In this document: one piece after another, positions 4,893-29,939 of the stretch
Position numbering within the stretch: the first letter of the stretch is position 1
Layout: each line of letters begins with the position of its first letter
Assembly: GCF_036507355.1 (NCBI RefSeq)
Contig: NZ_AP027877.1
Source of the DNA: Escherichia coli
GTDB taxonomy: Bacteria; Pseudomonadota; Gammaproteobacteria; Enterobacterales; Enterobacteriaceae
Length of the DNA stretch: 64,000 bases
Reading direction: 5' to 3' (one strand)
Program-made: the position numbers and the translations under genes
The notes under the pieces: generated by a model
Told to the model about the DNA's origin: nothing
The model's database searches: none
What the model saw: only the letters and a program-made list of their open reading frames with translations

Positions 4893-5366
4893 TTATTTAA
4901 AATTAAAGCCATCCGGATGGTTTTCCAGGCTGCCGGTCAACGCCGCGAACAGCACCGTTTTACCATCAATCGAAAGCGCATCGTTCACATTCAGCCAGGT
5001 GAGTTTCTCTTGCGACGTTTTCTCATCAATAGTCGAGAACAGCCCCGTCATCTGATTAGATTTCTCGGACCACATCACAGCGATACGTTGCGAGCCACAG
5101 TCATGCGGTTTGCACGCGCTCATCACCTGATACGTCTCATCTCCCAACGTTACGGTTTGTGCGGGAGTATAAGTACCGCCTTTCATCACCCATGCAGGTA
5201 GCTTATGCCCTTGCACCATCTGATTAAACGCAGCTTTGGTGGTTTCGCCCTTTGCCAGGCTGCTAATGGTTAAATCATCCTGCGCCATTGCACTGGTGGC
5301 GATGACCAGAGCGGCGACTGTCGTTATTGCCTTAAACATCATTCCTCCCGAGCTTATCCTGCCCAT
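4893..5366 (-). CDS. ivy: inhibitor of vertebrate lysozyme Ivy
   Basis: 157-aa ORF with signal peptide (MGRISSGGMMFKAITTVAALVIATSAMA) and CKPHDC motif. Confidence 0.9.
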   Translation of the reverse strand: MGRISSGGMMFKAITTVAALVIATSAMAQDDLTISSLAKGETTKAAFNQMVQGHKLPAWVMKGGTYTPAQTVTLGDETYQVMSACKPHDCGSQRIAVMWSEKSNQMTGLFSTIDEKTSQEKLTWLNVNDALSIDGKTVLFAALTGSLENHPDGFNFK

Positions 5367-5516: not shown

Positions 5517-6287
5517 ACCGTGCCTGGTTTGAAGATTACGCTTTTGCAGCAACCACTGGTGTGGATGGATGGCCCTGCCAACCTGCGTCATTTTGATCGT
5601 CAACTGGAAGGTATTACCGGGCGCGATGTGATCGTTCTACCGGAGATGTTTACCAGCGGCTTTGCCATGGAAGCGGCTGCTTCGTCGCTAGCACAAGATG
5701 ACGTAGTGAACTGGATGACAGCCAAAGCGCAGCAGTGCAATGCGCTGATTGCAGGCAGTGTTGCATTACAAACGGAGTCTGGTTCGGTTAACCGCTTTTT
5801 GCTGGTTGAGCCGGGCGGCACGGTACATTTTTATGATAAGCGTCATCTGTTCCGCATGGCAGATGAGCATCTGCATTATAAAGCGGGCAATGCGCGAGTG
5901 ATTGTGGAATGGCGCGGCTGGCGTATTTTGCCGTTGGTGTGCTACGACTTACGTTTTCCGGTGTGGTCGCGCAATCTCAACGATTATGACCTCGCCATCT
6001 ACGTTGCCAACTGGCCTGCTCCGCGCTCTCTGCACTGGCAGGCATTGCTGACGGCCCGCGCGATTGAGAATCAGGCGTATGTGGCGGGATGCAATCGCGT
6101 CGGCAGCGATGGCAACGGCTGCCATTATCGCGGTGACAGCCGGGTGATTAATCCACAGGGCGAGATTATCGCTACTGCCGACGCGCATCAGGCAACGCGC
6201 ATTGATGCGGAGCTGTCGATGGCGGTGTTAAGGGGATATCGCGATAAGTTTCCGGCATGGCGGGATGCGGATGAGTTTAGGTTGTAG
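5517..6287 (+). CDS. yafV: carbon-nitrogen hydrolase family protein (omega-amidase) YafV
   Basis: ORF 5511..6287; probable GTG start ([11 protein letters not shown]); nitrilase/CN-hydrolase-like sequence; synteny. Confidence 0.85.
6245..6277 (+). repeat. direct repeat copy 1 (native yafV 3' end), repeated at 8794..8826
   Basis: 28 of 28 identical bases (aagtttccggcatggcgggatgcggatg) plus 4 of 5 following bases are shared with 8794..8826. Confidence 0.8.
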
Positions 6288-6299
6288 TGAGTGGGTGTT

Positions 6300-6530
6300 G
6301 TGTTTAGGGCTGGGGAGAGTCGGGGAAGACTACGAAAGCCCGCTCTCCTGCGACCACTTTTATCATAGGAGTGTGGAAGTGCTTTTCCATCAATCGCGAT
6401 GACGTCTTTGTCATTTGATGAATGGCAGTCACGCATCCAGTTAATAAAGCATTCGTGAAATTATACTGAACGGATACAAGACATAACTCTAATTATGGTG
6501 CCGTGAACAGGATTACCATTTTCAAAATTA
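6300..6530 (-). mobile_element. H-repeat-associated (ISAs1-family) transposase remnant with large internal deletion
   Basis: minus-strand translation gives FENGNPVHGT and [27 protein letters not shown], matching the N-terminal third of YhhI-type H-rpt proteins, joined directly to 3'-end sequence; compare K-12 yafF pseudogene at the same position. Confidence 0.55.
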
Positions 6531-6560
6531 CGATATTATTTGCAGTAATTATGTTATTAA

Positions 6561-7073
6561 TCATTGTGATATTTCCATCTCTGTGATTAATACCGGATAA
6601 GCATTTAATTGCAGAGTTTGCACGAAATTATCGCAGATAACTGGCAATAACAATAACCCATCAGCCCGCTGCTGTAATACCTCCATTCGTTCTACTGATT
6701 CAACATTAACAACCAAACCAAGGGCATTTAGCGATTTAAGGATCTCCAGATGTTCACTCATCCAGCGCAGAGAAAAAGGATCATCACCAATTATAAAAAC
6801 AGGCCCCCAGCCGGTTAATAACTGGCGTTTCATTACGGAGCCAGGATGAAGTCGAGTACATATTACAGGAAATACCCCCTGTTGCGATGGTTCCGATGAT
6901 GTGGATAATTCAGAAATATTTTGCATTGTTAGTGAAGAATTAACATCCATTAATAATGGTGAAACAACCTCACTTTCCTTGCTAGTAATGGCTGCACTAA
7001 TCTGAAAGGAAAATAACAATATTATTACGTATAAACTCATTTTTAACATAACACATTCAATCCGTTTATTCAT
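6561..7073 (-). CDS. hypothetical secreted/membrane-anchored protein (orphan, low GC)
   Basis: 170-aa ORF; hydrophobic N-terminus MLKMSLYVIILLFSFQISA; AT-rich codon usage typical of horizontally acquired cargo; no family recognised. Confidence 0.4.
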   Translation of the reverse strand: MNKRIECVMLKMSLYVIILLFSFQISAAITSKESEVVSPLLMDVNSSLTMQNISELSTSSEPSQQGVFPVICTRLHPGSVMKRQLLTGWGPVFIIGDDPFSLRWMSEHLEILKSLNALGLVVNVESVERMEVLQQRADGLLLLPVICDNFVQTLQLNAYPVLITEMEISQ

Positions 7074-7139
7074 GTTATAGAATAATGATGCTATAAATCA
7101 TCATTAATGTTCAATTATTTAATCACACAATTTAAAAAA

Positions 7140-7571
7140 TCATTGACCAATGTGAATTGGCAATGTACCACTCAAGTTAAAATCACTGAATATTTTATCA
7201 ATTTCTCTTGCAGTTTCTATATATTTAACCTCTTTCGTACTTGCATTATAAATAGCCCAAGCCTCGGAATGGGATGTTTCACCAAACCTTACAAAAAAAC
7301 TTGATTTCATATTATTATATAAATTAACATCAGGAAAAGGATCTTCTCCAAAATTAGTAGTATTGAATAATGAAAGTTCGTATCGCTTAGAAAATTCTAT
7401 TGGTAGGATAGCTTCACTGCCATCAATAGCATTCATCCAGAGTTTGTTACCATTATATTCCAACAATAATCTCTGTTTTGCATGTGTCTTATCTCGTTCT
7501 TTAACGACAGCGAATACCTTTTTAACAACTTGCTGTGCGGATGGTCCTATTGTATTACCAAAAGCTGGCAA
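7140..7571 (-). CDS. hypothetical protein (orphan, low GC)
   Basis: 143-aa ORF between two H-rpt remnants; no family recognised. Confidence 0.35.
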   Translation of the reverse strand: MPAFGNTIGPSAQQVVKKVFAVVKERDKTHAKQRLLLEYNGNKLWMNAIDGSEAILPIEFSKRYELSLFNTTNFGEDPFPDVNLYNNMKSSFFVRFGETSHSEAWAIYNASTKEVKYIETAREIDKIFSDFNLSGTLPIHIGQ

Positions 7572-7871
7572 CCCGATTTTGCCATAAACACTCTCCTAAA
7601 TGAAATAAATATCCGTTTTATCGGCCTCGACAATATCTACCATTTATCCCTCCAAACAAGACCTGACTCCAGGACAAGAGCATAGTGTGTAGTAAACACT
7701 TCATGCTCTTGCCCTGACCATTGAAATAACAACTTTCGTTTGTTTACTGTACGCTGTCTAAATAGCTGCGTGGAATAAAGTTGCACTTTTTATCATCCCT
7801 TGCAGAGCAAGATTACGAAAGCCCGCCCCCGCAAGGACTGACGCGAGGTAGTCTCTGTCCGCAGCTGCTTT

Positions 7872-8635
7872 TCACATCTTACATCTTGCCCCTGCCATGA
7901 GTATCTTATCTTTCGTTAAAATATTAATAGCGATCTTCCGTATCCCTGAAAATAATTCTGCTGCATTTCCTCTTCTTATTTTGAAGTCATCTTTATTCAT
8001 TACCACGTCCAGATGCCAGTGCAATTTATTCTCCACTTGCCAGTGATTTCGGTTCGCTGTGGCGAACTTCTCTGCGGTTAAATCAGCAGAAATGCTATAA
8101 TATCTGACCGTCATTTCGGGATTTTTCTTTTGTTCTGCTATTATTGAGCGAAATGAGACTGCCATGCATAATTTCTTCAGCCCTTTCCATTCAAACGTAA
8201 AATCAATAAATTCATCAGAGACATGCAAACAATATGAAGACGGATTTTAATGACATAAATTGCTCCCTTGTGACGACTCTTGTCATAAGAGTGCCGGAGC
8301 GTTTTTCCATCAATTGCGATGATGTCTTTATCATCTGAAGAATGACAGTCACGCATCCAGTTAATAAAGCACTCGTAAAATTTTGCAGGACTGATACAGG
8401 ATACAACTCTGGCAATGATATCGTGAACAGGAATACCATTTTCAAAATCACCATATCACTTCAAAAAATCGAGATGTGTTTCCCCAAATCCTCTATATCT
8501 TCCCAGCCTTATGCACCAGAAATAACGGCGCAAATAGTTAACAGATAGAATATCTGGCAATTTATGTTCCACTTTCCAGGCTTGCCTGTAATCGGGGATA
8601 ATAGAAATATGTTCCATCAATTTTTTAAGTTCCAT
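7872..8635 (-). mobile_element. H-repeat-associated (ISAs1-family) transposase pseudogene (frameshifted, internally deleted)
   Basis: minus strand encodes [26 protein letters not shown] (H-rpt N-terminus, 8632 downward) and C-terminal [43 protein letters not shown] (ORF 7872..8228); about 760 bp versus about 1.1 kb for an intact copy. Confidence 0.65.
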
Positions 8636-8793
8636 TTTACCCCCCTTAATTATGCAATGAGTATTTGATCATGTATAAGCAATGAAAAACAGCTTTAGGT
8701 AATAAGGAACACCTCAATTATTGAACATAAAATGCGAATTATTTAGTACAAAAAAAGCAGTATTACGTGATTTTTCCCTGGGAGTACAGTGTG

Positions 8794-8826
8794 AAGTTTC
8801 CGGCATGGCGGGATGCGGATGGGTTT
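8794..8826 (+). repeat. direct repeat copy 2 (duplicate of yafV 3' end)
   Basis: aagtttccggcatggcgggatgcggatgggttt matches 6245..6277 with 1 mismatch; would encode ...[10 protein letters not shown], a yafV C-terminal fragment. Confidence 0.8.
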
Positions 8827-8892
8827 GAACTGGGGTGATTAGGCACTACATGTCTACATTTTCCCGGTCACCACCCCCTCAATCTTATGAAC

Positions 8893-10953
8893 TTAACCTC
8901 GGCTCACCGTTTTCGATTCCATCCAATAAATGACCCGGTTGGATGTGGGCTGATCGCCAACAACTTTGCCATCTGCAGAGATTAGCTTCAGCTCTTTATT
9001 AGCCTCATCACCGAAGTAAATCATACGGTAGCGAAAATAACCGCCCCAGGGTTCACGTCCACCCAGCGGACTTTGCATAAACCAGGCGCGGGAGTCGTGA
9101 ACCTGGTCATCATAGAGGGCCAGTAATTCAGCGCATGGCTGAGTACGCGTTCCCGTTCCCAGTGAATCAATAAAAAATTGTGGATAGAGTCCGTCTCCCA
9201 TAGCCTTAATTTGCTGATATTCTTTTGCTTCATCATCGCCATTAATCAGATACACCGGATATTTAGGAATGACATCCACAAGAATCTGAATGGCTTTCTC
9301 CATGACGCTGCCGTTAATATCGCGCGTCCATCCTTTATAATCGCTCTGAAATTCTCGGGCTGCCTCTCGCAACTGATACTGAGCATTGGTTGGGTCAAGG
9401 ATAGGAATGCCCTGATTACTTTCATCAAGTGTGCCATTCCCTTTCTGCTTGTTCGCCCGCTCTTTTTCAATATTTTCCATTTGTTCTTTACGCGCTTTAG
9501 CCTCTTTATCAAGTCCATCTTTATCCAGCTGTGGCGCCTTAATATAAAAAGGTTGCACAAGAAGGCTGTTATTCGCATAGCGACCGATACGCCAGGCGGT
9601 GATCCAGCCGATCTGATCGCTAATTGCGCTTTCAAGAACCTGGGCAAGTTGATAGGAGTGATAACCTTCCCTCGTATCAATCATTTCTTCTGTACCCTGC
9701 AAGGTGGTGTTCAGCAGCGTTTGTCGCCAGATGTTGAAGCGTTTTGTTAATGAATTAGCAATCGTAAATTCCTTTACACTAGAAGGACTCATAATTCGCA
9801 GAGGCGACACACCTTTTATTAATGGAGTAACAAATTTAGAATAAACAGCAAGTGGTGCTCCTGAATCAAATGCAGCAAGATACATATCATGCAGTGCTAT
9901 CTGAGAAAGAATTTCGCCTGAGTCACCACAGGACTTCCCCTGATCGCGAACGGGATAGCCACCACCGACATCAGAGTGCATCCCCGGATAGATAATTTCC
10001 TCTGCATTTAAAGGATAATTTCCGTCTGGACGACGGATTGAATCCAGCGGAAAGCACAGCCGCTGCTCATGCGCGGCAACGAAGTGGCGGCAGCATTTAA
10101 TCAGGCCGGGAAACTGCCTCTCATCAGGGAGTTGCTGAGTACTATCGGCCCATCCCATATGACCGGCAGCGCCCGGTAAAACATGCGCCGCCCCCACAGA
10201 AGCTACGGTATCCAGCAGCCCCAAAAACTCAATACTGACAGCTAACCCGGCCAGCATCACCTGTTGCTCCTGCGGGCAAGCTAACTGAGTCAACCAGTTA
10301 ACAAAAGTTCGTGCTTCCGCTGCGCCACGGGAAAATCCGTAGATAAACAGCTTTACGTTTAGCAGGCGCGGACTGGCTTGCTCTAACAGTCCCTGTAATT
10401 TTTCCAGGTAGGGGTTAATCACATTGCGACGATTCACTTCACCAGTCATAGGCCAGGGAGCGCGCATAAGAGGAATGTGCTCTTTTGCCACATTATCATC
10501 CAGTCGCTTATGGGAAGGGTCAATGGAATAGCTCAGGGCATCCACGAGGCGTAATAATGCCCAATTAATTCGATCTTCACCACCAGTAGCGAACTCCAGC
10601 CCGCTGTTGCTGTAATCCATTTCACCTATCTTGGGAAATGGTGTGCCTACACCCGGTATATAGTAGTTAAAATATCCCTGTTCTTCTGCGTTCTGATAGG
10701 TCGTATGAAACAGTTTGGCAATATTGGTTGGGTGTCCAGGAGTGTCATTATATTCATTATTATTTGTACCATCAAAAAACAGACTAATATGCAGACTTTG
10801 ATTACACGTAAAGCCAATTCTAAATCCAGCCTGTTTACTACAGTTGGTTTTGTGCTCTTCTGTTTTATTGATTTGTTTTAGGTAGTTCGCGTTTACCTGC
10901 GCTTCAGATAATATTAATCGCCCATCTTCAGGGAACACCGGGGGGCATAACAC
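8893..10953 (-). CDS. T6SS phospholipase effector, Tle-type (DUF2235-like alpha/beta hydrolase)
   Basis: 686-aa ORF; N-terminal LHISLFFDGTNNN motif and GxSxG lipase motif (IYGFSRGAAEA) characteristic of DUF2235/Tle1-like effectors; sits after a vgrG remnant and adaptor-like gene. Confidence 0.7.
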   Translation of the reverse strand: MLCPPVFPEDGRLILSEAQVNANYLKQINKTEEHKTNCSKQAGFRIGFTCNQSLHISLFFDGTNNNEYNDTPGHPTNIAKLFHTTYQNAEEQGYFNYYIPGVGTPFPKIGEMDYSNSGLEFATGGEDRINWALLRLVDALSYSIDPSHKRLDDNVAKEHIPLMRAPWPMTGEVNRRNVINPYLEKLQGLLEQASPRLLNVKLFIYGFSRGAAEARTFVNWLTQLACPQEQQVMLAGLAVSIEFLGLLDTVASVGAAHVLPGAAGHMGWADSTQQLPDERQFPGLIKCCRHFVAAHEQRLCFPLDSIRRPDGNYPLNAEEIIYPGMHSDVGGGYPVRDQGKSCGDSGEILSQIALHDMYLAAFDSGAPLAVYSKFVTPLIKGVSPLRIMSPSSVKEFTIANSLTKRFNIWRQTLLNTTLQGTEEMIDTREGYHSYQLAQVLESAISDQIGWITAWRIGRYANNSLLVQPFYIKAPQLDKDGLDKEAKARKEQMENIEKERANKQKGNGTLDESNQGIPILDPTNAQYQLREAAREFQSDYKGWTRDINGSVMEKAIQILVDVIPKYPVYLINGDDEAKEYQQIKAMGDGLYPQFFIDSLGTGTRTQPCAELLALYDDQVHDSRAWFMQSPLGGREPWGGYFRYRMIYFGDEANKELKLISADGKVVGDQPTSNRVIYWMESKTVSRG

Positions 10954-11298
10954 GGAAAAGCCAGACCACTTATTTTGCTGGACATGTTGCTGGTTCTTTT
11001 ACTTTGAGAGATTTTAATTGATGGGTATTGTTTCTACGACAATAAAGTTTTGACAAAGAAGCAAATAAAATGCATATCTTTCGATTGTCACACATTGGAA
11101 TATCGACAGAGCATTGATGATATTACGCAAAATATATTGCAGCCAAGTGAACTGACATTACGATCGAACACAAATGCAACATGATGGATACTACCATTAC
11201 ATGTCGAGCTTGATTTTCCGTTTATTTCACGATTATCTCTTGATATTAACAGCTACGGACTTTTAAACAGATAAATCTCCCCGTACATCACCACAATA

Positions 11299-12069
11299 TT
11301 ATCCTTCGAAGTCCCGCAAAGCTCCGAAATATTTCGCGTCATTGGCTCTGAAAGCAATATCAAGACAGTGGGCAAAATAGCTTTCCTGACTGAGTTCACT
11401 GACTGCTTTCTCCTTCATCAGGACTTCAGCGTCGCAGATACAGCCCATCAATCCCACCTGTACATCATCCACCCGATTCATCTCCGGGTTGTCAGTAAGC
11501 CTGCGTTCTGGTGAAAAACTTCCTGATTTCCAGTTAATCTCACCATCACGGTCTAACCAGCTCCAGAACAACGCAATATCAGTAAATGTCGCCTGCTGCT
11601 CGTTAGTCAAAACATGTGTGAACAGTAAAGGGAACACCCGATTATCATAGTAACGCAGCAATCCGGTCTGTTCTTCCCACTGAACCTGTGACAATACCTG
11701 AAGATGCCGCCCCAGCAGGTCGAATGTAAGAGGGGATATCAACAAAGTAAGACGCGGCGTATCAGCAAATGACGCCATCAGTTGTGCCAGAAATTTGCGA
11801 TGGCTACTGAGCGCAAAGTACAGGCGTAACACTACAGGGGAATACTCCATCGTCTCAGCTTCAGGCGTTCCTTCAAACAGGGCATACCAGTGAATGGCTG
11901 GCGACAGATGAAGCATATCATTTTGCAAAGGTTGGTCGGTTCCAGCCTGGTCAACAAGCACATCTATGTAATCCAAACCAGCGGCAGAACAGAATGATTC
12001 AGCTTGCTTCAGCCAGATAATATATTTGTCTTGATCGGTAGCGTGTGGCGATACTGTTATCATTGTCAT
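11299..12069 (-). CDS. putative T6SS effector adaptor/chaperone (DUF4123-like, assigned by position)
   Basis: 256-aa ORF starting 6 nt after the vgrG-remnant stop (GGGAGA spacer acts as RBS) and preceding the Tle gene; the vgrG-DUF4123-lipase order is the canonical arrangement; domain not verified. Confidence 0.45.
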   Translation of the reverse strand: MTMITVSPHATDQDKYIIWLKQAESFCSAAGLDYIDVLVDQAGTDQPLQNDMLHLSPAIHWYALFEGTPEAETMEYSPVVLRLYFALSSHRKFLAQLMASFADTPRLTLLISPLTFDLLGRHLQVLSQVQWEEQTGLLRYYDNRVFPLLFTHVLTNEQQATFTDIALFWSWLDRDGEINWKSGSFSPERRLTDNPEMNRVDDVQVGLMGCICDAEVLMKEKAVSELSQESYFAHCLDIAFRANDAKYFGALRDFEG

Positions 12070-12470: not shown

Positions 12471-12652
12471 TCGATAAAGGCGAAAGAGGTGTTTCCGGCT
12501 CTTAAGAAATATTTACGCACATGCACCAGCATTACAGAAAATAAAACCTGCGATACATTTTAATCAATAAGGTTGCTTTACCAAGCTTCCATCGATATTG
12601 ATGGAAAATTCATTAGACCTAATATGAACAGAATGTTGCTCATCATCTTTAT

Positions 12653-13339
12653 CTAATATTTGATTAACAAAAAAAACGTATTTTTATCAAATTCATAATT
12701 ATCACATCCCTCTCCACTAAATGATATAGCTCTAAAATCATATTCATTACATGAGTATCTTTTCATCAAAATAGAGAGGAATGTTTCATTAATTGATTTT
12801 AATACAAACCATTTTCTCCTAACAAGTTTGTAGTTTAATGTTTTTATATGATAATTATTTAAACTGGGGAGAAATGAATGCATATCATTCAATTTTACAT
12901 CAAAATATATTTTTTTACCTGCCGTAATTTCCACCCATCGGCTCAAATTCAAATCAAGCTCAAAGGGACAAAAGCCTCCTAGATAGTCTAAGCTAATATT
13001 TCCTGATGTAATCAAGAATTCGTCATCACACAAAGCATCAAATACATCTCCATTTCCTTTTTGGAAGTTCTTTGGATAATATATTCTGGGGAGAAAATAC
13101 GATTTAGTACTACTGTTATAAAAAGTTATAGTGGCTAAAATATTTTCAGCATGTGGCTTAACCACCAATTTAACAACAACATCATTTGTTAATTCATTAC
13201 TTATATTTTCCTCTGGCGCTAAATTATGGCTAAGATAAATAATTGGTTTCCCATTGTCACTTCTTCGTTCAAAACCGAATCTGTATTTTTTTACAAAAAG
13301 ATTCTCATTATCTATTGCAATTGCAATAGATAATGGCAA
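12653..13339 (-). CDS. hypothetical protein, candidate immunity protein for the upstream HExxH protein
   Basis: 228-aa low-GC ORF immediately downstream of the vgrG-coupled gene; start uncertain (the ORF-track start corresponds to a TTG codon); no family recognised. Confidence 0.35.
   Translation of the reverse strand: MPLSIAIAIDNENLFVKKYRFGFERRSDNGKPIIYLSHNLAPEENISNELTNDVVVKLVVKPHAENILATITFYNSSTKSYFLPRIYYPKNFQKGNGDVFDALCDDEFLITSGNISLDYLGGFCPFELDLNLSRWVEITAGKKIYFDVKLNDMHSFLPSLNNYHIKTLNYKLVRRKWFVLKSINETFLSILMKRYSCNEYDFRAISFSGEGCDNYEFDKNTFFLLIKY
13305..13336. repeat. 32-bp perfect palindrome
   Basis: ccattatctattgcaattgcaatagataatgg is its own reverse complement; overlaps the first codons of the 12653..13339 ORF. 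Confidence 0.85.
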
Positions 13340-13512
13340 AAAACAAAGAAAAAAACCATCAGTACAACATAATTTAGATTATAGAAAGCCAACCTCTTCA
13401 TCTTATTTCCCCGTCAACTCATCAAAACATTTTTCTATCTCTTTTATTTTATCCTCTACTTTTTTTGCTAACATATTCTCATCTTGAGCTTCAATATCTT
13501 CATTATTTAATT

Positions 13513-14205
13513 TTATATAAAATATCTTTCAACATTATATGCATTCTCAAATAACTGATCTTTACGCAATGTAACCAGATCATTAGCCACTGAAACATGT
13601 TTCTCATAGCTAACTTCATCCTTATTACTTGTTGCGAACTTATTAATACCCGTATAATCCTGAGTCCACATACCACCTTTTTGATTGTCACCCCAATACC
13701 AAAATATATGGGACATTTCATGGCAAAGTGTACTTACATGAGAGTCTCTACCTGTAACCGACTGTTTTATACCATGTCTGTATTCAAAATGCGCTCCGAT
13801 ATTTACAATGTAAGGAGGATCAAGATGTGGACTAATAAAAGCAGCAAATTCATTGCAGTTCGTATAATCTTTATAGCTTTCGATCGTCAAACCATTTGCA
13901 ATCGTCATTATTCGTCTGATGCCATCCATTATGAATAGTCTCGCTTGCATTCGTTTCCCAGTATCTTCCCCAACCTTTCTGATTTTTATAATGTCCTCGC
14001 CTTTAAGGCCAAAAACTTTAATAAAATCTCGTTGTTGCTCCCCCTCCCATGACATAATATCATCTGCTCTTTTCAATAAAACCATTTTCTGTGCTTTACA
14101 AGCCTTACTCATCATTATTTTAAATTTATTTGTAATTTTTTGCGGTACTACACATACTTGCGACTCGGGTTGTGAAGTCCCACTAGTATTATTATTCCCT
14201 GCCAT
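13513..14205 (-). CDS. putative T6SS cargo effector with HExxH motif (Zn-metallopeptidase-like candidate)
   Basis: 231 aa from MAGNNNTSGT (ORF-track start further upstream is IS-derived read-through); RBS GGAGGGG; start codon overlaps the reconstructed vgrG stop (ATGGCAGGGAATAA); HEMSH motif near the C-terminus; low GC. Confidence 0.45.
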   Translation of the reverse strand: MAGNNNTSGTSQPESQVCVVPQKITNKFKIMMSKACKAQKMVLLKRADDIMSWEGEQQRDFIKVFGLKGEDIIKIRKVGEDTGKRMQARLFIMDGIRRIMTIANGLTIESYKDYTNCNEFAAFISPHLDPPYIVNIGAHFEYRHGIKQSVTGRDSHVSTLCHEMSHIFWYWGDNQKGGMWTQDYTGINKFATSNKDEVSYEKHVSVANDLVTLRKDQLFENAYNVERYFI

Positions 14206-14349
14206 AATGCCCCTCCGGCTCAATATAAAAAGCATCCGAAAATAACAATTGGACTTTAATTTCCTGTGCTGTATCTGTATAAAAGTGAGGTAGCCTGAGT
14301 TTAACGGACACTCCTTCCTGAAATAGAATGGCATCAGAAGGAGCTAATA

Positions 14350-14652
14350 ATGAGCAGAAAAACCCAACGTTACTCTAAAGAGTTCAAAGCCGAAGCTGTC
14401 AGAACGGTTCTTGAAAATCAACTTTCGATCAGTGAAGGCGCTTCCCGATTATCTCTTCCTGAAGGCACTTTAGGACAATGGGTTACCGCCGCCAGAAAAG
14501 GGCTCGGTACTCCTGGTTCCCGCACGGTGGCTGAACTGGAATCTGAAATTCTGCAACTGCGTAAGGCGTTAAATGAAGCTCGCCTTGAGCGAGATATATT
14601 AAAAAAAGCAACAGCGTATTTTGCACAGGAGTCGCTGAAAAATACGCGTTAA
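14350..14652 (+). CDS. IS3-family transposase OrfA (HTH)
   Basis: 100-aa ORF MSRKTQRYSKEFKAEAVRTV... with leucine-zipper-like C-terminus. Confidence 0.85.
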   Translation: MSRKTQRYSKEFKAEAVRTVLENQLSISEGASRLSLPEGTLGQWVTAARKGLGTPGSRTVAELESEILQLRKALNEARLERDILKKATAYFAQESLKNTR

Positions 14653-14687
14653 TCGAACAATGGCGACAACAATTTCCCATTGAAGCG

Positions 14688-15506
14688 ATGTGTCAGGTAT
14701 TTGGTGTATCCAGGAGCGGTTATTACAACTGGGTACAGCATGAACCCTCAGACAGAAAACAAAGTGATGAGCGGCTAAAACTGGAGATTAAGGTGGCACA
14801 TATCCGCACTCGCGAAACATATGGAACCCGGCGGCTCCAGACGGAGCTGGCAGAGAATGGCATCATCGTTGGTCGTGACCGACTGGCACGTCTTCGTAAG
14901 GAGCTAAGGCTACGCTGTAAGCAGAAACGCAAGTTCAGAGCGACTACGAACTCGAACCACAATCTGCCAGTTGCGCCAAATCTGCTGAACCAGACGTTCG
15001 CTCCTACAGCACCAAATCAGGTCTGGGTGGCGGACCTGACGTATGTTGCCACACAGGAGGGATGGTTGTACCTCGCTGGCATCAAAGATGTTTATACGTG
15101 CGAAATTGTCGGCTACGCCATGGGAGAGCGCATGACAAAAGAGCTGACAGGTAAAGCCCTGTTTATGGCGCTCAGGAGCCAGCGCCCACCTGCCGGGCTA
15201 ATCCACCACTCTGATCGAGGTTCACAGTACTGCGCATACGATTACCGGGTCATACAGGAGCAGTTTGGTCTGAAAACATCAATGTCGCGTAAAGGTAACT
15301 GTTACGACAACGCTCCGATGGAAAGCTTCTGGGGAACGCTGAAAAATGAGAGCCTGAGCCACTATCGTTTTAATAACCGGGATGAAGCCATCTCAGTAAT
15401 ACGGGAATACATTGAGATTTTCTACAATCGTCAGCGTCGTCACTCTCGTCTGGGGAATATCTCCCCGGCAGCCTTCAGGGAAAAATATCATCAGATGGCT
15501 GCTTAA
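14688..15506 (+). CDS. IS3-family transposase OrfB (DDE integrase core; probably made as an OrfAB frameshift fusion)
   Basis: 272-aa ORF with DLTYV...HHSDRGSQY...SRKGNCYDNAPMESFW DDE signature. Confidence 0.85.
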   Translation: MCQVFGVSRSGYYNWVQHEPSDRKQSDERLKLEIKVAHIRTRETYGTRRLQTELAENGIIVGRDRLARLRKELRLRCKQKRKFRATTNSNHNLPVAPNLLNQTFAPTAPNQVWVADLTYVATQEGWLYLAGIKDVYTCEIVGYAMGERMTKELTGKALFMALRSQRPPAGLIHHSDRGSQYCAYDYRVIQEQFGLKTSMSRKGNCYDNAPMESFWGTLKNESLSHYRFNNRDEAISVIREYIEIFYNRQRRHSRLGNISPAAFREKYHQMAA

Positions 15507-15530
15507 AAAAAGAATAAATGGTAGTGTCCG

Positions 15531-17237
15531 CTATTGCCAGTACACCTCAAATATTTCTGTATATCCCTCTCTGTCTGTTTCACCACGCGTCTGTGTGCCA
15601 TCCTCAAAAAAGGCAATATACTGCGTCTCTGAATACGGTATCCCGTCATCGTCCGTAAAATGGAACTGGAGGGTATATTTTTCAGGATCATCTTCATCGT
15701 CACCGCCATCACCTCCTCCGTCACTCCCTGCGGGATTGCCACTATCCTCTCCGGAGTCATCACTGCCATCATCACTGCTCTCATCCTCCGGAGCCTCCAG
15801 CACCGCCGGCTGCATCGTCCCCACCGGTGTCCCCGCACTGCCCCCACCGTTCAGGTTTATCTTCGGCCCGGCAATATCCACTCCGCCCGGCTGAATGACG
15901 ATAAACGAGCCACCCACCTTCAGGCTTATCCGGCTGCTGCTCTCCAGCACGATATCCCCGTCCACTTTTATCCCCAGCGCGCCACTCACCTTCTCCGCCA
16001 GGTCCCCCTTCACCACCAGGCTGTGTTTCCCCTCCACCAGACTGATATGGTTCCCCGTCGTCTTATGCTCCTGCTTCCCTTCCACCGTCACTTTACGGTC
16101 GTTTCTGACGTACAGACCGTCATCGTGACTCACGCTCACCGTCCGGTCATTCGTCACCTTCAGAGTCTGGTCATTACGTACCGTGATACGCCGGTCGTTC
16201 GCCACCGTGATACTCTGGTCGTGGCCCCCCTCTTTTTTTGTACCGACCTGAACCGTCTGACCCTTCACCACCGTTATCTTCTGGTCGTTACCGATGGTTT
16301 CCGTATGGTCATGTTTTACATCCGTTGTCCGGTCGTTGAGCACCTCCGTATCCATGTTCTTCTGCGCATGGATATACACCTGCTCATTACTGGTGGCGTC
16401 TTCAAACCGCAGCTCGTTAAATCCGCTTCCTTTATAGGTTTTTGACCGTATCGTCATCTGCGTCTTCGTTCCCGGCAGGTCGCCCGGGGAGCGGTTGTCC
16501 TCATGGTACGTCCGCCCCATGATTATCGGCTGGTCCGGGTCTCCGTTCAGAAAATCAACAATCACCTCCTGGCCCACCCGCGGTATCGCCAGATTACCGA
16601 ACCCCGGCCCCGCCCACGCCTGCGATACCCGCACCCAGCATGAACTCGCCTCCGTCATCCCGTGATAACGGTCCCAGTGGAACTTCACCCGTACCCGGCC
16701 ATGTTCATCGCAGAAGATTTCCTCTCCCGCAGGCCCGGTGACAATGGCACTCTGCGGCCCGTCCACCTTCGGTTTGCTTTGCAGCCGTGGACGCCACGTC
16801 CGGTCCGCCGGTATCACCTCTAACTGATTTCCCAGCGTGGTTCCTCTCCCTTGGCTGCCGTGCAGCGCCTGCGGCTGGCTTCCTGACAGTATGCTCTGTA
16901 CCACCTGCCATTCACGGTTCAGCATCTTCTGCGGATGCCCCGTCAGCGTAAACCGCGTTCCCGGCCACAGCCTCGGCGAATTACTCTGCCCTGTGGCCTT
17001 TTCCGCATCACTGCGCAGGCTCTCCATCTGGTACAGCGTGAAATCCTTGCCGTGCTGCTCATCCTTGAACCTTCCCGGATAATCAAATATTTCATACTGC
17101 GCCAGCTGTCCGTTCAGGTTCTCACCCTGCTGCTCATACATCCCCGGCCAGTCCGGCACCTTAAACGTGTAATCCTGGCTCTGCACCGACGACGGGCGGA
17201 CATGCGCCTCATACGCTACCGCCCGGGTTTCCGGCAT
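15531..17237 (-). pseudogene. vgrG: vgrG (T6SS spike) lacking the N-terminal ~220 aa and interrupted 33 codons before its stop by IS600-like copy 1
   Basis: 568-aa ORF with gp5-like OB-fold motif (GPAGEEIFCDEHGRVRVKFHWDRY) only ~165 aa from its start, repeated VxxNDR beta-helix segments, DUF2345-like region, acidic Gly/Asp linker and a short C-terminal domain; the last residues EVYWQ are encoded by the IS terminus. Confidence 0.8.
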
Positions 17238-17294
17238 CCGCCATCTCCCTCATGAAAGCGTAACTCCTTACTGACACTCATTTTTTACACGTAC

Positions 17295-17328
17295 AAAAAC
17301 AACATCCTGCACGAAGGCAGGATGTTGT
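17295..17328 (-). terminator. rho-independent terminator downstream of hcp
   Basis: hairpin caacatcctgc-acgaag-gcaggatgttg followed on the minus strand by a T-rich tract. Confidence 0.55.
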
Positions 17329-17338
17329 TGACTCAGAT

Positions 17339-17857
17339 TTATGCTTCCAGCGGTGCACGCCAGTCATCGGCACCAGAAGTACCGGATTTGATGTGCTCCC
17401 ACTCAACCTTACGGTATGCCAGTGATACTGCGAGCAATTGCGTAAACTCACGCTGTGCAGGGTCCTGGCAGTGCGGCATGTGCAGGTTCATGTCCACAAT
17501 CGTCGCGTCAGTAAGACGTGTGGTGAAGTAGTGCTCCTGCTTGCCTTCAACTGAAGTACGCCACCAGTGCAGCTCCACTTTCGGCAGCATTTCACCGGAG
17601 GCCAGCGCGTTGTACAGCAGCGGAACGGCTTTGTTCAGCGCCACGGTGAAAATGAACGGTTTGTGCGCGCGCTGCCCGGAAGGTTGACCAGACTGTGGAT
17701 CGGTTGGAACAGTAACGTTATGCAGAAACTCCTGCACCAGCATTTCATCTTCGTGTCCCTGCACGTAGATATTGCCGACAGAATCTGCGGTGAAAGCACC
17801 GGCAGTGATGTTCCCCTGGGTCTGACCTGTAATTGAAATGTAACATGGGGTTGGCAT
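17339..17857 (-). CDS. hcp: Hcp (T6SS inner tube protein, TssD)
   Basis: 172-aa ORF MPTPCYISITGQTQGNITAGAFTADSVGNIYVQGHEDE..., typical Hcp1-family sequence and size. Confidence 0.9.
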   Translation of the reverse strand: MPTPCYISITGQTQGNITAGAFTADSVGNIYVQGHEDEMLVQEFLHNVTVPTDPQSGQPSGQRAHKPFIFTVALNKAVPLLYNALASGEMLPKVELHWWRTSVEGKQEHYFTTRLTDATIVDMNLHMPHCQDPAQREFTQLLAVSLAYRKVEWEHIKSGTSGADDWRAPLEA

Positions 17858-18559
17858 TTATGAACTCCTTGTGAAATTATCAACTGCTGTTTTACGAACA
17901 ACCCGTCGTTAATCCCCGACGGGTTAGAGTGTGATGCGGCTCACATCAGGAACCACACCCTTTTCTTTATTCGAGTTACAGGCACACGTAATTAGCACCT
18001 ACTGAAAAACTCTTTTATGGTGTTTAAATATATTTTTAGTCAATTTCAGAACACGGTCACATAAGCTAAAAATATATCAACTTCAACAGCAGAATTATCC
18101 ATAACGTATCTTCCCCCCCATAAAAATCCACAGCCGCGTCAAAAACAAATTATTACGACACTTACTCCGCCATCGTTCCAGCACGCAATTAAGATATTCC
18201 TTAAAGGAATTCCTTATGATGTATTGCCAGCAATTAATTAATTGATAAAACCATACATAAAACTTATTAATCAATTTAATAAATGCATATAAATCAATAT
18301 ATTATTGTATTTGATTGACCGTAAAATCATATTCATCAAGTCTATAAATACCAAAATCTATTTCACTATAATATATTAGCAAGGAAGAATGCATCTCTTT
18401 CTAAAATATAAATAGTTCTTTTAATATTTTATTTCATGAGTAGAATACTGATCACAACAGAAGGAAGGTTACATTATCTAACTGCCACTGAAACGGTATC
18501 TTCGGTATTTTTATGCAGTACGAAAATGCTGTGCTCATGGTCTGAACGGGAACATTTTT
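17858..18559. promoter_or_regulatory. AT-rich divergent intergenic region between hcp and the tssB stub (probable T6SS promoter region)
   Basis: about 700 bp of very AT-rich non-coding sequence between divergently oriented hcp and tssB starts. Confidence 0.35.
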
Positions 18560-18718
18560 ATGAGCAAAATGAACAACAATGGCGGCAGTGTCGCGCCGAA
18601 AGAAAGAATCAGCGTTCGGTATACACCAAAAGTTGATGGGGTGGCTGCTGATATCGAATTGCCGCTGAATTTATTGATCACCGGCAATCTGAAAGGGAAA
18701 CCAGATAACACGCCGTGA
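18560..18718 (+). pseudogene. tssB: tssB (T6SS sheath small subunit) 5' stub, 52 codons, truncated by an IS3-family element
   Basis: MSKMNNNGGSVAPKERISVRYTPKVDGVAADIELPLNLLITGNLKGKPDNTP matches the conserved TssB/VipA N-terminus; the stop codon TGA is the first three bases of the IS inverted repeat. Confidence 0.65.
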
Positions 18719-18772
18719 ATCGCCACGGGTTTAACAGACACCTCAGAGTCATTTAAGATGGCTTAAAGAGAG

Positions 18773-19057
18773 GTGCCCATGAGCGGTAAGCGTTATCCCG
18801 AAGAGTTTAAAATTGAAGCAGTCAAACAGGTTGTTGATCGCGGTTATTCTGTTGCCAGCGTTGCAACACGTCTCGATATCACCACCCACAGCCTTTACGC
18901 CTGGATAAAGAAGTACGGTCCGGATTCTTCCGCTAATAAAGAACAGTCAGATGCTCAGGCCGAGATCCGCCGTCTCCAGAAAGAGCTGAAGCGGGTTACC
19001 GACGAACGGGACATATTAAAAAAAGCCGCGGCGTACTTCGCAAAGCTGTCCGACTGA
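18773..19057 (+). CDS. IS3-family transposase OrfA
   Basis: 94-aa ORF MPMSGKRYPEEFKIEAVKQVVDRGYSVASVATRL... (HTH plus leucine zipper). Confidence 0.85.
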   Translation: MPMSGKRYPEEFKIEAVKQVVDRGYSVASVATRLDITTHSLYAWIKKYGPDSSANKEQSDAQAEIRRLQKELKRVTDERDILKKAAAYFAKLSD

Positions 19058-19113
19058 GGTACGCCTTTATCCGTGACAACACCTGTTGCTGGCCTGTTCG
19101 CCTGCTCTGTCGG

Positions 19114-19926
19114 GTGCTGGATGTTCATCCCAGTGGTTTTTACGCCTGGCTTCAGCAGCCGCATTCACAACGCCATCAGGCAGACCTGAGGCTGACAGGG
19201 CAGATTAAACAGTTCTGGCTGGAATCGGGATGCGTCTATGGTTATCGCAAAATCCATCTGGATCTGCGGGACAGCGGGCAACAGTGCGGAGTGAACAGAG
19301 TCTGGCGACTGATGAAACGTGTCGGGATAAAGGCTCAGGTCGGATACCGGAGCCCGCGGGCACGTAAAGGCGAGGCCAGTATCGTGTCGCCCAACAGGCT
19401 CCAGCGACAGTTCAATCCGGATGCTCCGGATAAGCGTTGGGTAACGGACATAACCTACATCAGGACCCACGAAGGCTGGCTGTATCTTGCCGTGGTTGTT
19501 GATCTGTTCTCACGCAAAATTATCGGCTGGTCCATGCAATCCCGGATGACAAAGGACATTGTCCTGAACGCACTGCTGATGGCTGTATGGCGCCGTAATC
19601 CCCAAAAACAGGTGCTGGTTCATTCGGATCAGGGCAGTCAGTACACAAGCCATGAGTGGCAGTCGTTCCTGAAATCACACGGCCTGGATGGCAGCATGAG
19701 CCGTCGCGGTAACTGCCATGATAATGCGGTTGCAGAAAGCTTTTTCCAGTTGTTGAAACGCGAACGGATAAAGAAAAAGATCTACGGAACGCGGGAAGAA
19801 GCCCGCAGCGATATTTTTGATTACATCGAAATGTTTTATAACAGTAAGCGTCGGCATGGTTCCAGCGATCAGATGTCACCGACAGAATATGAAAACCAGT
19901 ATTATCAACGGCTCGGAAGTGTCTAG
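19114..19926 (+). CDS. IS3-family transposase OrfB (DDE)
   Basis: 270-aa ORF with DITYIRTHEGWLYLAVVVDLFSRK...HSDQGSQYTS...SRRGNCHDNAVAESFF DDE signature. Confidence 0.85.
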   Translation: MLDVHPSGFYAWLQQPHSQRHQADLRLTGQIKQFWLESGCVYGYRKIHLDLRDSGQQCGVNRVWRLMKRVGIKAQVGYRSPRARKGEASIVSPNRLQRQFNPDAPDKRWVTDITYIRTHEGWLYLAVVVDLFSRKIIGWSMQSRMTKDIVLNALLMAVWRRNPQKQVLVHSDQGSQYTSHEWQSFLKSHGLDGSMSRRGNCHDNAVAESFFQLLKRERIKKKIYGTREEARSDIFDYIEMFYNSKRRHGSSDQMSPTEYENQYYQRLGSV

Positions 19927-20198
19927 ATTATCCGTGGCGATTCAGTTGTCAAGCAGATAGAAGCCATCTAGGTCAGGGGGAATGACTAGGAATTACTCCC
20001 CAAGGGTAGCGTACGTCTACACACATCAAATTACCTCCCGGACAGGGACATAGTAGAAATATTGTGTATTGCAATTATGGATACTGTCATCGTCTAGGTA
20101 GTTCGCCAGCTTTATAGTGTTTTACTGAATTTGGCCACCTGAGCAGAGGTGATATGGGAGAGTGATTTTCATACGCTCTCGTATGGTTTCCGGCCTGA

Positions 20199-20426
20199 AT
20201 GCAGTGTTCATCACGCGATCCGCACGGTGAAATTACAGCTCACAGACTGTGGGGAAACCCGGGGCGCTGGGTGATTGAAGACGACCTGTCCAGTTACTTC
20301 GACACCGTACACCATCGACTGCTGATGAAAGCCGTACGCCGCAGGATCAGTGACGCACGTTTTATGGCCCTCCTGTGGAAAACCATCAAGGCGGGCACAT
20401 CGAGGTCGGTCTCTTTCGGGCGGTAA
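20199..20426 (+). pseudogene. reverse transcriptase fragment (group II intron/retron-type RT, as in K-12 CP4-6 ykfC)
   Basis: translation contains IEDDLSSYFDTVHHRLLMKAVRRRISDARFMALLWKTIKAG, the RT fingers/palm motif context; only about 75 codons. Confidence 0.55.
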
Positions 20427-20439
20427 GTGACGCCGCGCC

Positions 20440-20684
20440 AGCTGACGTTGCCACGAATATTCGCCAATACGCTGCCAGACTTCGGTATGAAAGCGCAGAA
20501 TCAATGACCGGTAATCGGCCATGCTTTCGCGGTACGGCAGCGTCAACGTAAAGCAGAACACCACGAGTCGTGGGTAATGGTCAACGGCCTGTTGCAGAAA
20601 GGCTCGTGTATTTGTCGTGTCAGTCGAATTGCCGGAGACGATGGAGGGAGAATAAGGATTCATAACGGCGCTCTCAATGAACAC
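20440..20684 (-). pseudogene. prophage-remnant protein fragment (possibly inovirus Gp2-like)
   Basis: N-terminal part of minus-strand ORF 20211..20684 (MNPYSPSIVSGNSTDTTNTRAFLQQAVDHYPRL...); the rest of that ORF overlaps the RT fragment on the other strand and is probably read-through. Confidence 0.3.
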
Positions 20685-20888
20685 TGGTGTGATGGACAGG
20701 AGTGTGATGTTGCAGGTGTGCTGCTCATCATCGATCCCATATCATTACGTTCGCTCACTAAGACGGAGTGCCTTTCGTCATTTAACCTGTCACAATCCAA
20801 ATAATTTCAGACAGATATTATCTCCGTGAATCCCCCGCCTCCTTAACCGGAGCGCGGGGATTTTTCTTTTTCACGTTGAGAACTCTGT

Positions 20889-21773
20889 ATGACTAAACCT
20901 CACGGCCTTCAGGCCCTTGAACAACCGCTGGCGTCGCTTCCCGATGCGCTTCGCCAGCTTATTCTTGAACGTATTCAGAATCTCACCCACTATGAGCCGG
21001 TGATTGGTATCATGGGCAAAAGCGGTGCCGGTAAGTCTTCGCTCTGTAACGAACTCTTCCGGGGTGAGGTCTCCCCCGTCAGTGATGTGAACGCCTGTAC
21101 CCGTGAAGTGCTGCGCTTCCGGCTGCGCAGCGGGCGTCACAGTCTGGTGATTGTTGATTTACCGGGTGTGGGAGAAAACGGGCAACGGGACCATGAATAC
21201 CGTGCCCTGTACCGGCGTATGCTGCCGGAACTGGACCTGGTTCTGTGGGTCATTAAGTCCGATGACCGGGCGCTGTCGGTGGACGAGCAGTTCTGGCGCG
21301 GTGTGATGCAGCCTTACCAGCAGCAGGTGGTGTTCGTGATTAACCAGGCCGACAAAATAGAACCCAGCCATGAATGGGATACCCGTTCTGGTACTCCCTC
21401 AGCACAGCAACAGAAAAATCTTCAGGAAAAGCAGGTTGCCATTACCACGATGTTTAAGCCACATCACCCGGTCTGCGTGGTATCCGCATGTACCGGATGG
21501 GGCGTGGAGGATATGGTAGCAACCATGATGCGCTGTCTGCCGGACCGCGCCACCAGCCCAGTAGCGACACAGTTGCACGGGAGGCTCTGCACGGAGCCGG
21601 TAAAGTCGCAGGCCCGTGACGGCTTCGGTGAGGCGGTGGGGCGGTGGGGCGGGTGTTCGATACGGCAGAATCATCGTTATTCCTGCCTGCGCCGCTGAAG
21701 ACGGTGATACGTACCGTGCGTGATGCTGTGGTGTCTGTAGCCCGCGCGGTCTGGGACTGGATCTTCTTCTGAA
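20889..21773 (+). pseudogene. YeeP/YkfA/YfjP-like prophage GTPase with a probable 3' frameshift
   Basis: Walker A GKSGAGKSS, G3 DLPG and NQADK G4 motifs; the ORF ends at 21698 but a plausible conserved C-terminus (...TVIRTVRDAVVSVARAVWDWIFF) continues in another frame to about 21773. Confidence 0.65.
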
Positions 21774-22032
21774 TGAGTAAAAGGTCATCAGGACTGTAGT
21801 GAATGACTCTGTTTATTCACCGCCTGGTAGATGATTATTTCCAGGCAGACATAACCTGTCCTGACCAGCAAAAGATACCACCAGTCATAAGCGCGTCACC
21901 ACTGCCGACGTTGCATCCACACAGTCTTCTTGCACCAGGCGTTTCGCTACGTATGACGGACACAACCTGTCAGTCCCATCCTTTACAGTAATACCTTCTT
22001 TATTAATCAATTACCCAACACGGAGATAATAC

Positions 22033-23368: not shown

Positions 23369-23403
23369 CCCGCTGAAAACAACCATAACAGGGAGTTTTT
23401 AAC

Positions 23404-24305: not shown

Positions 24306-24367
24306 ACTCCCCGCCTCAGGGAGAAGCTTCCCGTATTCATTTAACACATTAAAAATAAAGGAAAAGA

Positions 24368-24910: not shown

Positions 24911-24969
24911 CCGGCATCAGCGCTGTCCGGCCCGGATGAGCAGGCAAGTTAAATCAAGGAACAATATCA

Positions 24970-25800: not shown

Positions 25801-26067
25801 TGCCACCACTGCCTGATAACGCCCACCCGGCCGCCATTAATCCTGCCCCCTGGAGAACAACCCCGGCAGCCGCCCCATCTCCGATGACGACCTGTGCGCC
25901 TGTGCTCACACCTTCTTTATCGTCCCGGTGAACTCAGTTTCTGCCGGTTAAGTCTCGCTGACGGCCACTGGCCCTCACACTGTGATGAAGACGGCTATGC
26001 GCAGTCCTGTCCGTCACTCCGATTGAACCGGTATCCCCAACACAATGAATGAAAGAGGAAAAACAAC

Positions 26068-26538: not shown

Positions 26539-26549
26539 GGTCAGCCGCT

Positions 26550-27029: not shown

Positions 27030-27049
27030 CACAACAGGAGAATAACCGA

Positions 27050-27271: not shown

Positions 27272-27294
27272 CACACGTTTAAGGAAGGCTAAAA

Positions 27295-28570: not shown

Positions 28571-28601
28571 ATCTTCTCACCAATAAGCACAGGATATTCT
28601 C

Positions 28602-29862: not shown

Positions 29863-29939
29863 TGGCGGAACGGACGGGACTCGAACCCGCGACCCCCTGC
29901 GTGACAGGCAGGTATTCTAACCGACTGAACTACCGCTCC
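29863..29939 (-). tRNA. aspV: tRNA-Asp (GUC)
   Basis: reverse complement GGAGCGGTAGTTCAGTCGGTTAGAATACCTGCCTGTCACGCAGGGGGTCGCGGGTTCGAGTCCCGTCCGTTCCGCCA; identical to the copy at 38087..38163. Confidence 0.95.

Follow-up and report, generated by a model that had tools for sequence, protein, structure and literature searches.

The 3' end of yafV occurs twice in a 64,000-nucleotide stretch of an Escherichia coli genome (contig NZ_AP027877.1, assembly GCF_036507355.1; hereafter the window), which raises the question of where the second copy came from. An earlier note on this DNA had reported that a 33-bp stretch at the end of yafV recurs at 8794..8826 with one mismatch, and had read the pair either as the footprint of an insertion or recombination that duplicated its target or as the old edge of an island, with later cargo added beside yafV. 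The repeat itself was reproduced. The 33-mer AAGTTTCCGGCATGGCGGGATGCGGATGAGTTT lies at 6246-6278 and, with one mismatch, at 8794-8826; no further 33-mer match at three or fewer mismatches was found within the window, and none of 100 shuffled sequences gave any 33-mer match, a chance expectation of none. A repeat search extended the copy pair to 50 nt at 82% identity, and in-frame homology between 6233-6290 and 8781-8838 covers 44 of 58 identical positions (76%) with a stop codon at the equivalent position in both. The 33 bp are the conserved core of this longer yafV homology. By BLAST, 8781-8826 aligns with yafV in thousands of E. coli genomes, and each of 5,426 E. coli genomes carried the repeat once (in yafV) or twice (in yafV and beside tle1) and never more than twice, a distribution unlike that of the common dispersed element that had been raised as the counter-explanation.

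Table 1. Features of the region between yafV and aspV in the window.
Feature	Position	Strand	Basis
Resident yafV (2-oxoglutaramate amidase), 255 codons	5520..6287	+	Translation, alignment, RefSeq annotation of near-identical strain 23CRST027
Copy 1, genuine E. coli yafV 3' end (33-bp core 6246-6278)	6233..6290	+	Repeat search, alignment
ISAs1/H-repeat remnant 1, IRR tip and ~200 bp of internal sequence, yafF-like	6321..6541	-	Repeats, alignments, RefSeq 'ISAs1 family transposase, partial'
170-aa ORF, DUF2859	6561..7073	-	Pfam PF11072, E = 1.9e-28; RefSeq 'integrating conjugative element protein'
Hypothetical ORF, 167 aa in other strains	7140..7643	-	Translation, Pfam, annotation
ISAs1/H-repeat element 2, both terminal inverted repeats	7803..8780	-	Alignment with K-12 ybfL and other H-repeats
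Copy 2, 58-bp relic, last 18 codons and stop of a Pseudocitrobacter-type yafV (core 8794-8826)	8781..8838	+	Alignment, translation
tle1, predicted T6SS phospholipase effector	8893..10953	-	Pfam PF09994 and PF22137
tla1-like DUF4123 chaperone gene, same effector module as tle1	11299..12069	-	Pfam PF13503, annotation
tRNA-Asp (aspV), far end of the variable region starting after yafV	29863..29939	-	ARAGORN, K-12 synteny

The two copies differ in their surroundings. Copy 1 is identical in sequence to the same segment in K-12, NC101 and other E. coli genomes, and the resident gene stops at TAG where K-12 has TGG-TGA (K-12 protein end ...EFRLW*). It does not abut an IS terminus, as the tip of H-repeat 1 (6321) lies 30 bp further on, and this junction is common to K-12 and the other E. 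coli loci inspected. The 2.5 kb between the copies consist of two ISAs1/H-repeat remnants and two small ORFs and nothing else, in agreement with the description of the block as mobile-element remnants and orphan ORFs only. The second of these ORFs is broken in the window by an in-frame stop at codon 16 and had no Pfam match. H-repeat 2 carries terminal inverted repeats of the CAGGGAAAGAT type and a homologous transposase ORF, annotated in RefSeq as 'ISAs1 family transposase', which places it in the ISAs1 family (H-repeat); it has an internal deletion of about 312 bp and its transposase is frameshifted. Its IRR tip lies near 7803 and its IRL ends in ...TTTCCCTG, with the last base at 8780. This position was set by the point at which the tle1-type and PAAR-type arrangements diverge, by alignment to K-12 and other H-repeats, and by the NC101 subtype, where the IS end differs and is nested but the junction is identical. 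Matches to H-repeats only stop at window 8780-8788. A target-site duplication was looked for at the ends of H-repeat 2 and none was found, and the sequences adjoining the two outer IS tips (ctggggagagt versus ggagtacagtg) are unrelated. Copy 2 begins at the first base past the IRL tip, its 5' side being truncated by the IS, and runs in frame and colinear with the yafV end through the homologous stop codon, convergent with tle1.

Copy 2 is xenologous. It matches Pseudocitrobacter yafV at 54 of 58 positions in the window (55 of 58 in NC101) and four E. coli yafV alleles at 44-48 of 58, the foreign orthologue being closer than any resident allele compared. Among 100,044 species representatives, the peptide W-R-D-A-D-G-F-E-L at the end of yafV was present only in Pseudocitrobacter faecalis. 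In this species yafV and tRNA-Asp are 70 bp apart without an island between them, and the terminus GFELG* is therefore native to Pseudocitrobacter. The first 13 bp of copy 2 contain 2-3 private substitutions that match neither E. coli nor Pseudocitrobacter. As judged from these alignments, copy 2 is very probably a pseudogene fragment, the end of another genus's yafV left behind as a scar of horizontal transfer. The near-identity over 33 bp would then be one conserved patch of two yafV orthologues that are 80% identical overall. The alignment of E. coli and Pseudocitrobacter yafV contains three identical runs of 28-32 bp, and a special DNA-level constraint on the 33-bp core, such as an att site or a terminator, was rejected for this reason. 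A query of a large protein database with the C-terminal peptide returned only short fragments and no full-length protein ending GFELG*. Elsewhere the C-terminus of yafV reads DADPFTIG in Klebsiella, DADRFSIENK in Enterobacter and GFELESLS in one metagenome; the ENA contig with GFELESLS was rejected as donor, since it is 50/58 identical and represents another relative with an island at aspV.

The DNA adjoining copy 2 is also foreign in affinity, and an intact donor-like arrangement was found. Metagenome contig AGFS01075944.1, of Pseudocitrobacter type, carries an intact yafV (…GFELG*), the same spacer and then tle1, and lacks the 2.5-kb block between them. Its homology to the window starts at window 8780, and over 8780-10999 the two are 91.9% identical. 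The fadE-ivy-yafV segment of the contig shares 95% identity with P. faecalis and 81% with E. coli, and its tle1 is 8% divergent from that of E. coli and split into two ORFs. As yafV and tle1 are intact and adjacent in this contig, copy 2 would therefore be a hitch-hiked donor flank at the original yafV/tle1 boundary. In the window the immunity gene of the tle1 module is deleted (related strains have DUF3304 immunity genes) and T6SS core genes are absent.

The distribution of the block and of the relic among the 5,426 E. coli genomes was then compared. The 2.5-kb block is present in about 541 of them. About 66-70 of these block carriers have block, relic and tle1 together, and about 470 genomes have the block without copy 2; in two of the latter that were examined the right flank of the block is a PAAR-like module. 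Wherever this tle1 3' end occurs (66-70 genomes), the relic is present alongside it. The relic junction is common to two subtypes that are about 9% apart over 8700-8960, and it is old because these diverged subtypes share it.

These data bear directly on how the pair arose. Duplication of the target, the first of the two earlier readings, would require an H-repeat, or a composite transposon made of H-repeat, ORFs and H-repeat, to have inserted into the end of yafV. Direct repeats do bracket a block bounded by two ISAs1 remnants in the same orientation, but the copies are different alleles whose differences match E. coli in one and Pseudocitrobacter in the other, and their spacing is uneven, with copy 1 ending short of the left tip and copy 2 abutting the right one. 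Target duplications of ISAs1-family elements are about 8-14 bp long (ISfinder descriptions), the flanks of the outer tips do not match, and the block stands without copy 2 in the many genomes counted above. We regard this origin as refuted in practice, with only the slightest chance of being correct. Equally little credit can be given to the copies being attL and attR of an island that integrated site-specifically at the 3' end of yafV. Many islands duplicate a gene 3' end when they integrate and the RefSeq name of one ORF in the block is 'integrating conjugative element protein', but the block encodes no integrase or recombinase by Pfam (DUF2859 was the sole match, the second ORF having none) and is not always flanked by both repeats. 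In addition, copy 2 runs in frame through the stop as a divergent allele, not as an identical core, and in a foreign genome without the block it adjoins tle1.

It is improbable, though somewhat less so, that copy 2 represents an old yafV allele of E. coli itself, kept as an ancient polymorphism, with the yafV'-tle1 junction ancestral to E. coli. The age of the junction would fit this, as would the wide occurrence of aspV T6SS islands in E. coli (PMC2941450). Against it, the 5,426 E. coli genomes contain no donor-type yafV extending beyond the relic and no yafV that exceeds 86% identity with the donor type; identity with the Pseudocitrobacter-type contig is 92% in the tle1 flank as against 81% in the core genes; and GFELG* is the native yafV terminus of the island-free P. 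faecalis.

We consider it highly likely that a foreign yafV end entered with the tle1 module and was later cut by an IS. A Pseudocitrobacter-type yafV end would have entered an E. coli ancestor together with a tle1-tli-tla-vgrG effector module, probably by homologous recombination at yafV-aspV, a locus with type VI secretion DNA in both genera. If copy 2 entered in this way with the module, the yafV'/tle1 junction would therefore be the donor's native boundary between core and island. The IRL tip of an ISAs1/H-repeat would later have come to lie exactly against the fragment, with removal of the remainder of the donor yafV allele. The most likely path is insertion of the IS into a chimeric yafV, after which homologous recombination would have exchanged the left side for a segment of the ordinary E. 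coli type, made up of yafV, an H-repeat remnant, the two ORFs and an H-repeat, the right-hand crossover falling inside the H-repeat. Copy 1 would be the end of the intact E. coli yafV brought in by the replacing segment. For this insertion-then-repair path we found no intermediate genome ('yafV 5' part - full H-repeat - GGAGTACAG...') and no target-site duplication, and the anatomy would be identical if incoming DNA had joined the IS tip in one step or if the IS had caused an adjacent deletion. We infer the direction of transfer, from the Pseudocitrobacter type to E. coli, from a single island-free Pseudocitrobacter genome. The second earlier reading, an old island boundary with cargo beside yafV, survives in part: copy 2 and tle1 would mark the native boundary of a foreign locus, and what now stands to its left is an intact E. 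coli yafV with the H-repeat block. That reading did not include that copy 2 is xenologous, that it is cut exactly by the IS terminus, or that the 33-bp identity is merely one conserved patch of a gene.

One of the approximately 70 carriers, ChlosBP-23-1, has yafV directly convergent with tle1 and lacks the 2.5-kb block. Alignment with NC101 gives 98.5% identity for the left side and 99.5% for the right, with both alignments covering the repeat where they overlap, giving an exact repeat-to-repeat junction between near-identical flanks in a natural genome. Its yafV is chimeric but intact and ends GFELG*, with five C-terminal residues altered. The junction is like that expected of a deletion between short direct repeats, with a crossover in the 28-33-bp identical core and loss of the 2.5-kb block; it differs from the general case in that the product is a chimeric intact gene found in a single carrier. 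The block was probably lost by recombination between the two copies within this core, which would document one natural deletion through the 28-33-bp repeat and suggests that the two copies can still recombine. The opposite polarity, in which ChlosBP-23-1 is the ancestral uninterrupted state and the IS block inserted into such a locus, is unlikely. This genome has the simplest-looking arrangement and mirrors the Pseudocitrobacter-type contig, but its yafV resembles that of E. coli B2 as far as the conserved core, and in the IS-bearing genomes the part of copy 2 upstream of this core has bases of the donor type (4 differences in 13 bp versus 0-1 in the next 45 bp). Its tle1 side is also closer to NC101 than the window subtype is (98.3%), and it therefore falls among the genomes with the single shared IS junction. 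Alternatively, the ancestor of ChlosBP-23-1 could have been a primary recombinant that was never interrupted, with conversion of its upstream yafV at a later time.

The yafV relic is a scar of horizontal transfer that is well resolved but of an ordinary kind, and it reveals no new mechanism or class of element. It would serve as a dated, directional marker of the transfer of a T6SS phospholipase module between genera into E. coli, with the end of the donor's core gene still attached, and it suggests that yafV-aspV exchanges effector cassettes by recombination in flanking core DNA and not by a site-specific integrase. It also warns annotators that the 'duplicated gene ends' seen at the borders of islands can turn out to be relics of xenologous genes instead of target duplications. 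A search of the literature on yafV, aspV and T6SS yielded general descriptions of aspV T6SS islands and nothing on the yafV relic. Like other donor core-gene remnants at island edges, this one is a short in-frame non-functional piece of the neighbouring gene, closer to a foreign orthologue and contiguous with DNA of like affinity. It differs in that the donor-type arrangement was recovered from a metagenome contig and in that the remnant coexists with an intact resident yafV 2.5 kb away, presumably because the IS and a second recombination separated them. The effector genes resemble the Tle1-Tli1-Tla1 module of the EAEC Sci-1 type in the Tle1 catalytic and C-terminal domains and the DUF4123 chaperone, known here from sequence, and differ in the deleted immunity gene and the lack of T6SS core genes in this window.

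The H-repeats resemble the ISAs1 H-repeats at the distal end of Rhs/T6SS effector arrays (K-12 yafF, ybfL, ydcC), with a terminal repeat CAGGGAAAGAT... and about 90% identity to the K-12 copies. Their position between yafV and the last effector/immunity genes is also that of the K-12-type elements in other E. coli loci inspected, and the difference is that one terminus here abuts a foreign yafV fragment. The right flank of H-repeat 2 varies by strain, being either tle1 or a PAAR-like module, and the presence of different effector modules to the right of the same H-repeat suggests that the element serves as a recombination anchor. A broader reading, which we think doubtful, is that the yafV 3' patch, the H-repeats and vgrG/hcp together form a recurrent anchor by which T6SS cassettes move between Enterobacteriaceae genera at yafV-aspV, the relic acting as a reversible switch of the YafV C-terminus through deletion of the H-repeat block. 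If this were true, the relic would exemplify a general exchange of cassettes across genera and would not be a one-off scar.

The duplication of the yafV end described in the earlier note was confirmed and proved more extensive than reported. The 33-mer at 6246-6278 recurred at 8794-8826 with one mismatch; no further matches with up to three mismatches were present in the 64-kb window, and none in 100 dinucleotide-preserving shuffles. A repeat search of the window lengthened the pair to 50 nt (82% identity). In the yafV frame 6233-6290 (copy 1, the true yafV end) and 8781-8838 (copy 2) were identical at 44/58 positions, their stop codons falling at equivalent points, and an independent BLAST search aligned 8781-8826 to yafV of thousands of E. 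coli genomes. The yafV genes of E. coli and Pseudocitrobacter were 80.5% identical and shared three runs of 28-32 bp without a single difference. The repeat core is one of these runs, which is why the duplication seemed to span just 33 bp. With comparable runs in the same alignment, nothing suggested a special DNA-level function for the core.

Features of the yafV-aspV region (window coordinates)
Feature	Position	Strand	Remarks
Resident yafV	5520-6287		
H-repeat 1 (ISAs1/H-repeat remnant)	6321-6541		IRR tip 30 bases past copy 1
DUF2859 ORF	6561-7073	minus	Pfam E = 1.9e-28
Family-less ORF	7140-7643	minus	in-frame stop in window
H-repeat 2	7803-8780		both terminal repeats; ~312-bp internal deletion; broken transposase
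Copy 2	8781-8838		first base directly after IRL tip; stop codon 8836-8838
tle1	8893-10953		convergent with copy 2; Pfam Tle1 catalytic and C-terminal domains
IS3-family transposase genes	14688-15506 and 19114-19926		
vgrG without N-terminal part	15531-17237		adjoins IS3-family transposase genes
hcp	17339-17857		

The junction of copy 1 with H-repeat 1 was common to K-12 (yafF), B2 strains, O111 and the other loci inspected. The IRL tip of H-repeat 2 (…TTTCCCTG, last base 8780) was supported by aligning the element with ybfL of K-12 and further H-repeats, and was the exact point at which strains with different right-hand neighbours diverged. H-repeat-only matches elsewhere in E. coli ended at window 8780-8788. 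The stop codons of copy 2 and tle1 were 54 bp apart. The family-less ORF was interrupted at codon 16 (7596-7598) and was intact (167 aa) in strains 23CRST027, A30 and NC101.

To identify the source of copy 2, one genome per species (100,044 species) was searched with a codon-degenerate W-R-D-A-D-G-F-E-L pattern, which matched only Pseudocitrobacter faecalis DSM 27453. In that genome 70 bp and no island separate yafV from tRNA-Asp, and the same terminus in this island-free genome argues that the fragment is native to Pseudocitrobacter and foreign to E. coli. Over 58 bp copy 2 matched Pseudocitrobacter at 54 (window) or 55 (NC101) positions, as compared to 44-48 for four E. coli yafV alleles, and no yafV in the E. 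coli genomes searched was >86% identical to the donor type. A metagenome scan for the uninterrupted allele recovered contig AGFS01075944.1, whose fadE-ivy-yafV genes shared 95% identity with P. faecalis and 81% with E. coli. It carried an intact yafV, then the spacer seen in the window (TTAGGCACTACATGTCTACATTTTCCCG…) and tle1. This part was 91.9% identical to window 8780-10999, with homology beginning exactly at the IS tip. Core genes diverged by 19% and the tle1 region by 8%, which together with the foreign-type yafV end indicates that the tle1 module was transferred between genera along with the end of the donor yafV.

A survey of 5,426 complete E. coli genomes found the block of yafV, H-repeat remnant, two ORFs and H-repeat 2 in ~541, with copy 2 and tle1 to its right in ~66-70 of these. 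In two further carriers that were inspected, a PAAR-like/DUF2169/VgrG module lay against the H-repeat tip and nothing there resembled yafV. The tle1-type carriers formed a window-like (98-99.6% identical) and an NC101-like (~91%) subtype. The latter had a second IS end nested at 19 bp from the earlier tip and an unchanged IS-tip/relic junction, so that the junction represents a single old event. In NC101 itself (locus positions 5060-5115) the nested H-repeat had an O111-like IRL; the older tip (ATTACTTGACCTTTCCCTG) still adjoined the relic and was identical to that of the PAAR-type strains. The repeat occurred at most twice per genome, always in yafV or beside tle1, which speaks against a common dispersed element, the finding that would have refuted the earlier note.

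Copy 2 is well explained as the IS-truncated remains of the end of a foreign yafV, and it marks where the boundary of the imported tle1 module first lay. A junction exactly at the IS tip, together with the lack of any target duplication, indicates that the foreign gene was cut short by the end of an H-repeat and that no duplication was involved. A target-site duplication was rejected: the copies are different alleles, do not both lie at IS tips and are far longer than the duplications made by ISAs1 elements. An attL/attR pair was also rejected, as there was no integrase and the block was common without copy 2. The simplest path would begin with import of the tle1 module by a crossover within yafV, after which an H-repeat would have inserted into the yafV chimera so formed. 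The left part would then have been swapped for a segment of the usual E. coli type (an intact yafV with its H-repeat block), the right-hand crossover falling inside the H-repeat. The same H-repeat bears different effector modules on its right side depending on the strain, which fits a role of H-repeats as recombination anchors. The same anatomy would result if incoming DNA had been joined to the IS tip in one step, or if an IS-mediated adjacent deletion had placed the tip at the relic.

A query built to represent the recombined junction (yafV as far as the core, then the copy 2 tail and tle1) was fully matched in one genome only, ChlosBP-23-1. Its intact 256-codon yafV ends GFELG* and is directly convergent with tle1, an arrangement that could also represent the uninterrupted ancestral state, which we consider unlikely. 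This yafV was E. coli B2-like as far as the core, without the donor-type bases found upstream of the core in copy 2. Compared with NC101, the left flank was 98.5% and the right flank 99.5% identical, the alignments overlapping on the repeat, and the tle1 side was nearer NC101 than the window subtype is. Most parsimoniously, ChlosBP-23-1 lost the 2.5-kb block by deletion through the repeat, and the two repeats thus appear to be still recombinogenic.

Good descriptions exist of the E. coli T6SS island at aspV, e.g. LF82 PAI I (PMC2941450). We found no description of the yafV relic in the literature. Copy 2 has all the marks of a xenologous gene remnant from recombination-mediated island transfer. 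The relic is a fresh instance of an already known kind of genomic scar and not surprising; it helps reconstruct effector-cassette exchange.

Resident yafV ends TAG-TGA (6285-6290) instead of the TGG-TGA of K-12 (EFRLW*) and NC101, and its protein therefore lacks the final Trp. This allele was also present in 23CRST027 and one O111:H8 strain. Codon 247 (6261-6263), inside the core, was polymorphic: CAG (Q) in K-12 and NC101, CGG (R) in the window and 19AR1321. CGG is also the state of copy 2 and Pseudocitrobacter, and the relic could conceivably have acted as a donor in gene conversion. Seven yafV matches in E. coli genome searches were on plasmid-labelled records.

The window tle1 is an intact 686-codon ORF; in the metagenome contig (419-2513) it is two overlapping ORFs, reflecting a frameshift or assembly error. 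At 10969-10996 the window lacks 511 bp present in near-identical 23CRST027, a deletion between 28-bp direct repeats that removed nearly all of the tli1a (DUF3304) immunity gene beside tle1; a tblastn search of the first 16 kb gave no tli1a match. The DNA between yafV and aspV (12600-29860) does not amount to a complete T6SS island, containing no large core T6SS ORFs, and CP4-like prophage-remnant genes (GTPase, DUF932, DUF5983) reach to aspV.
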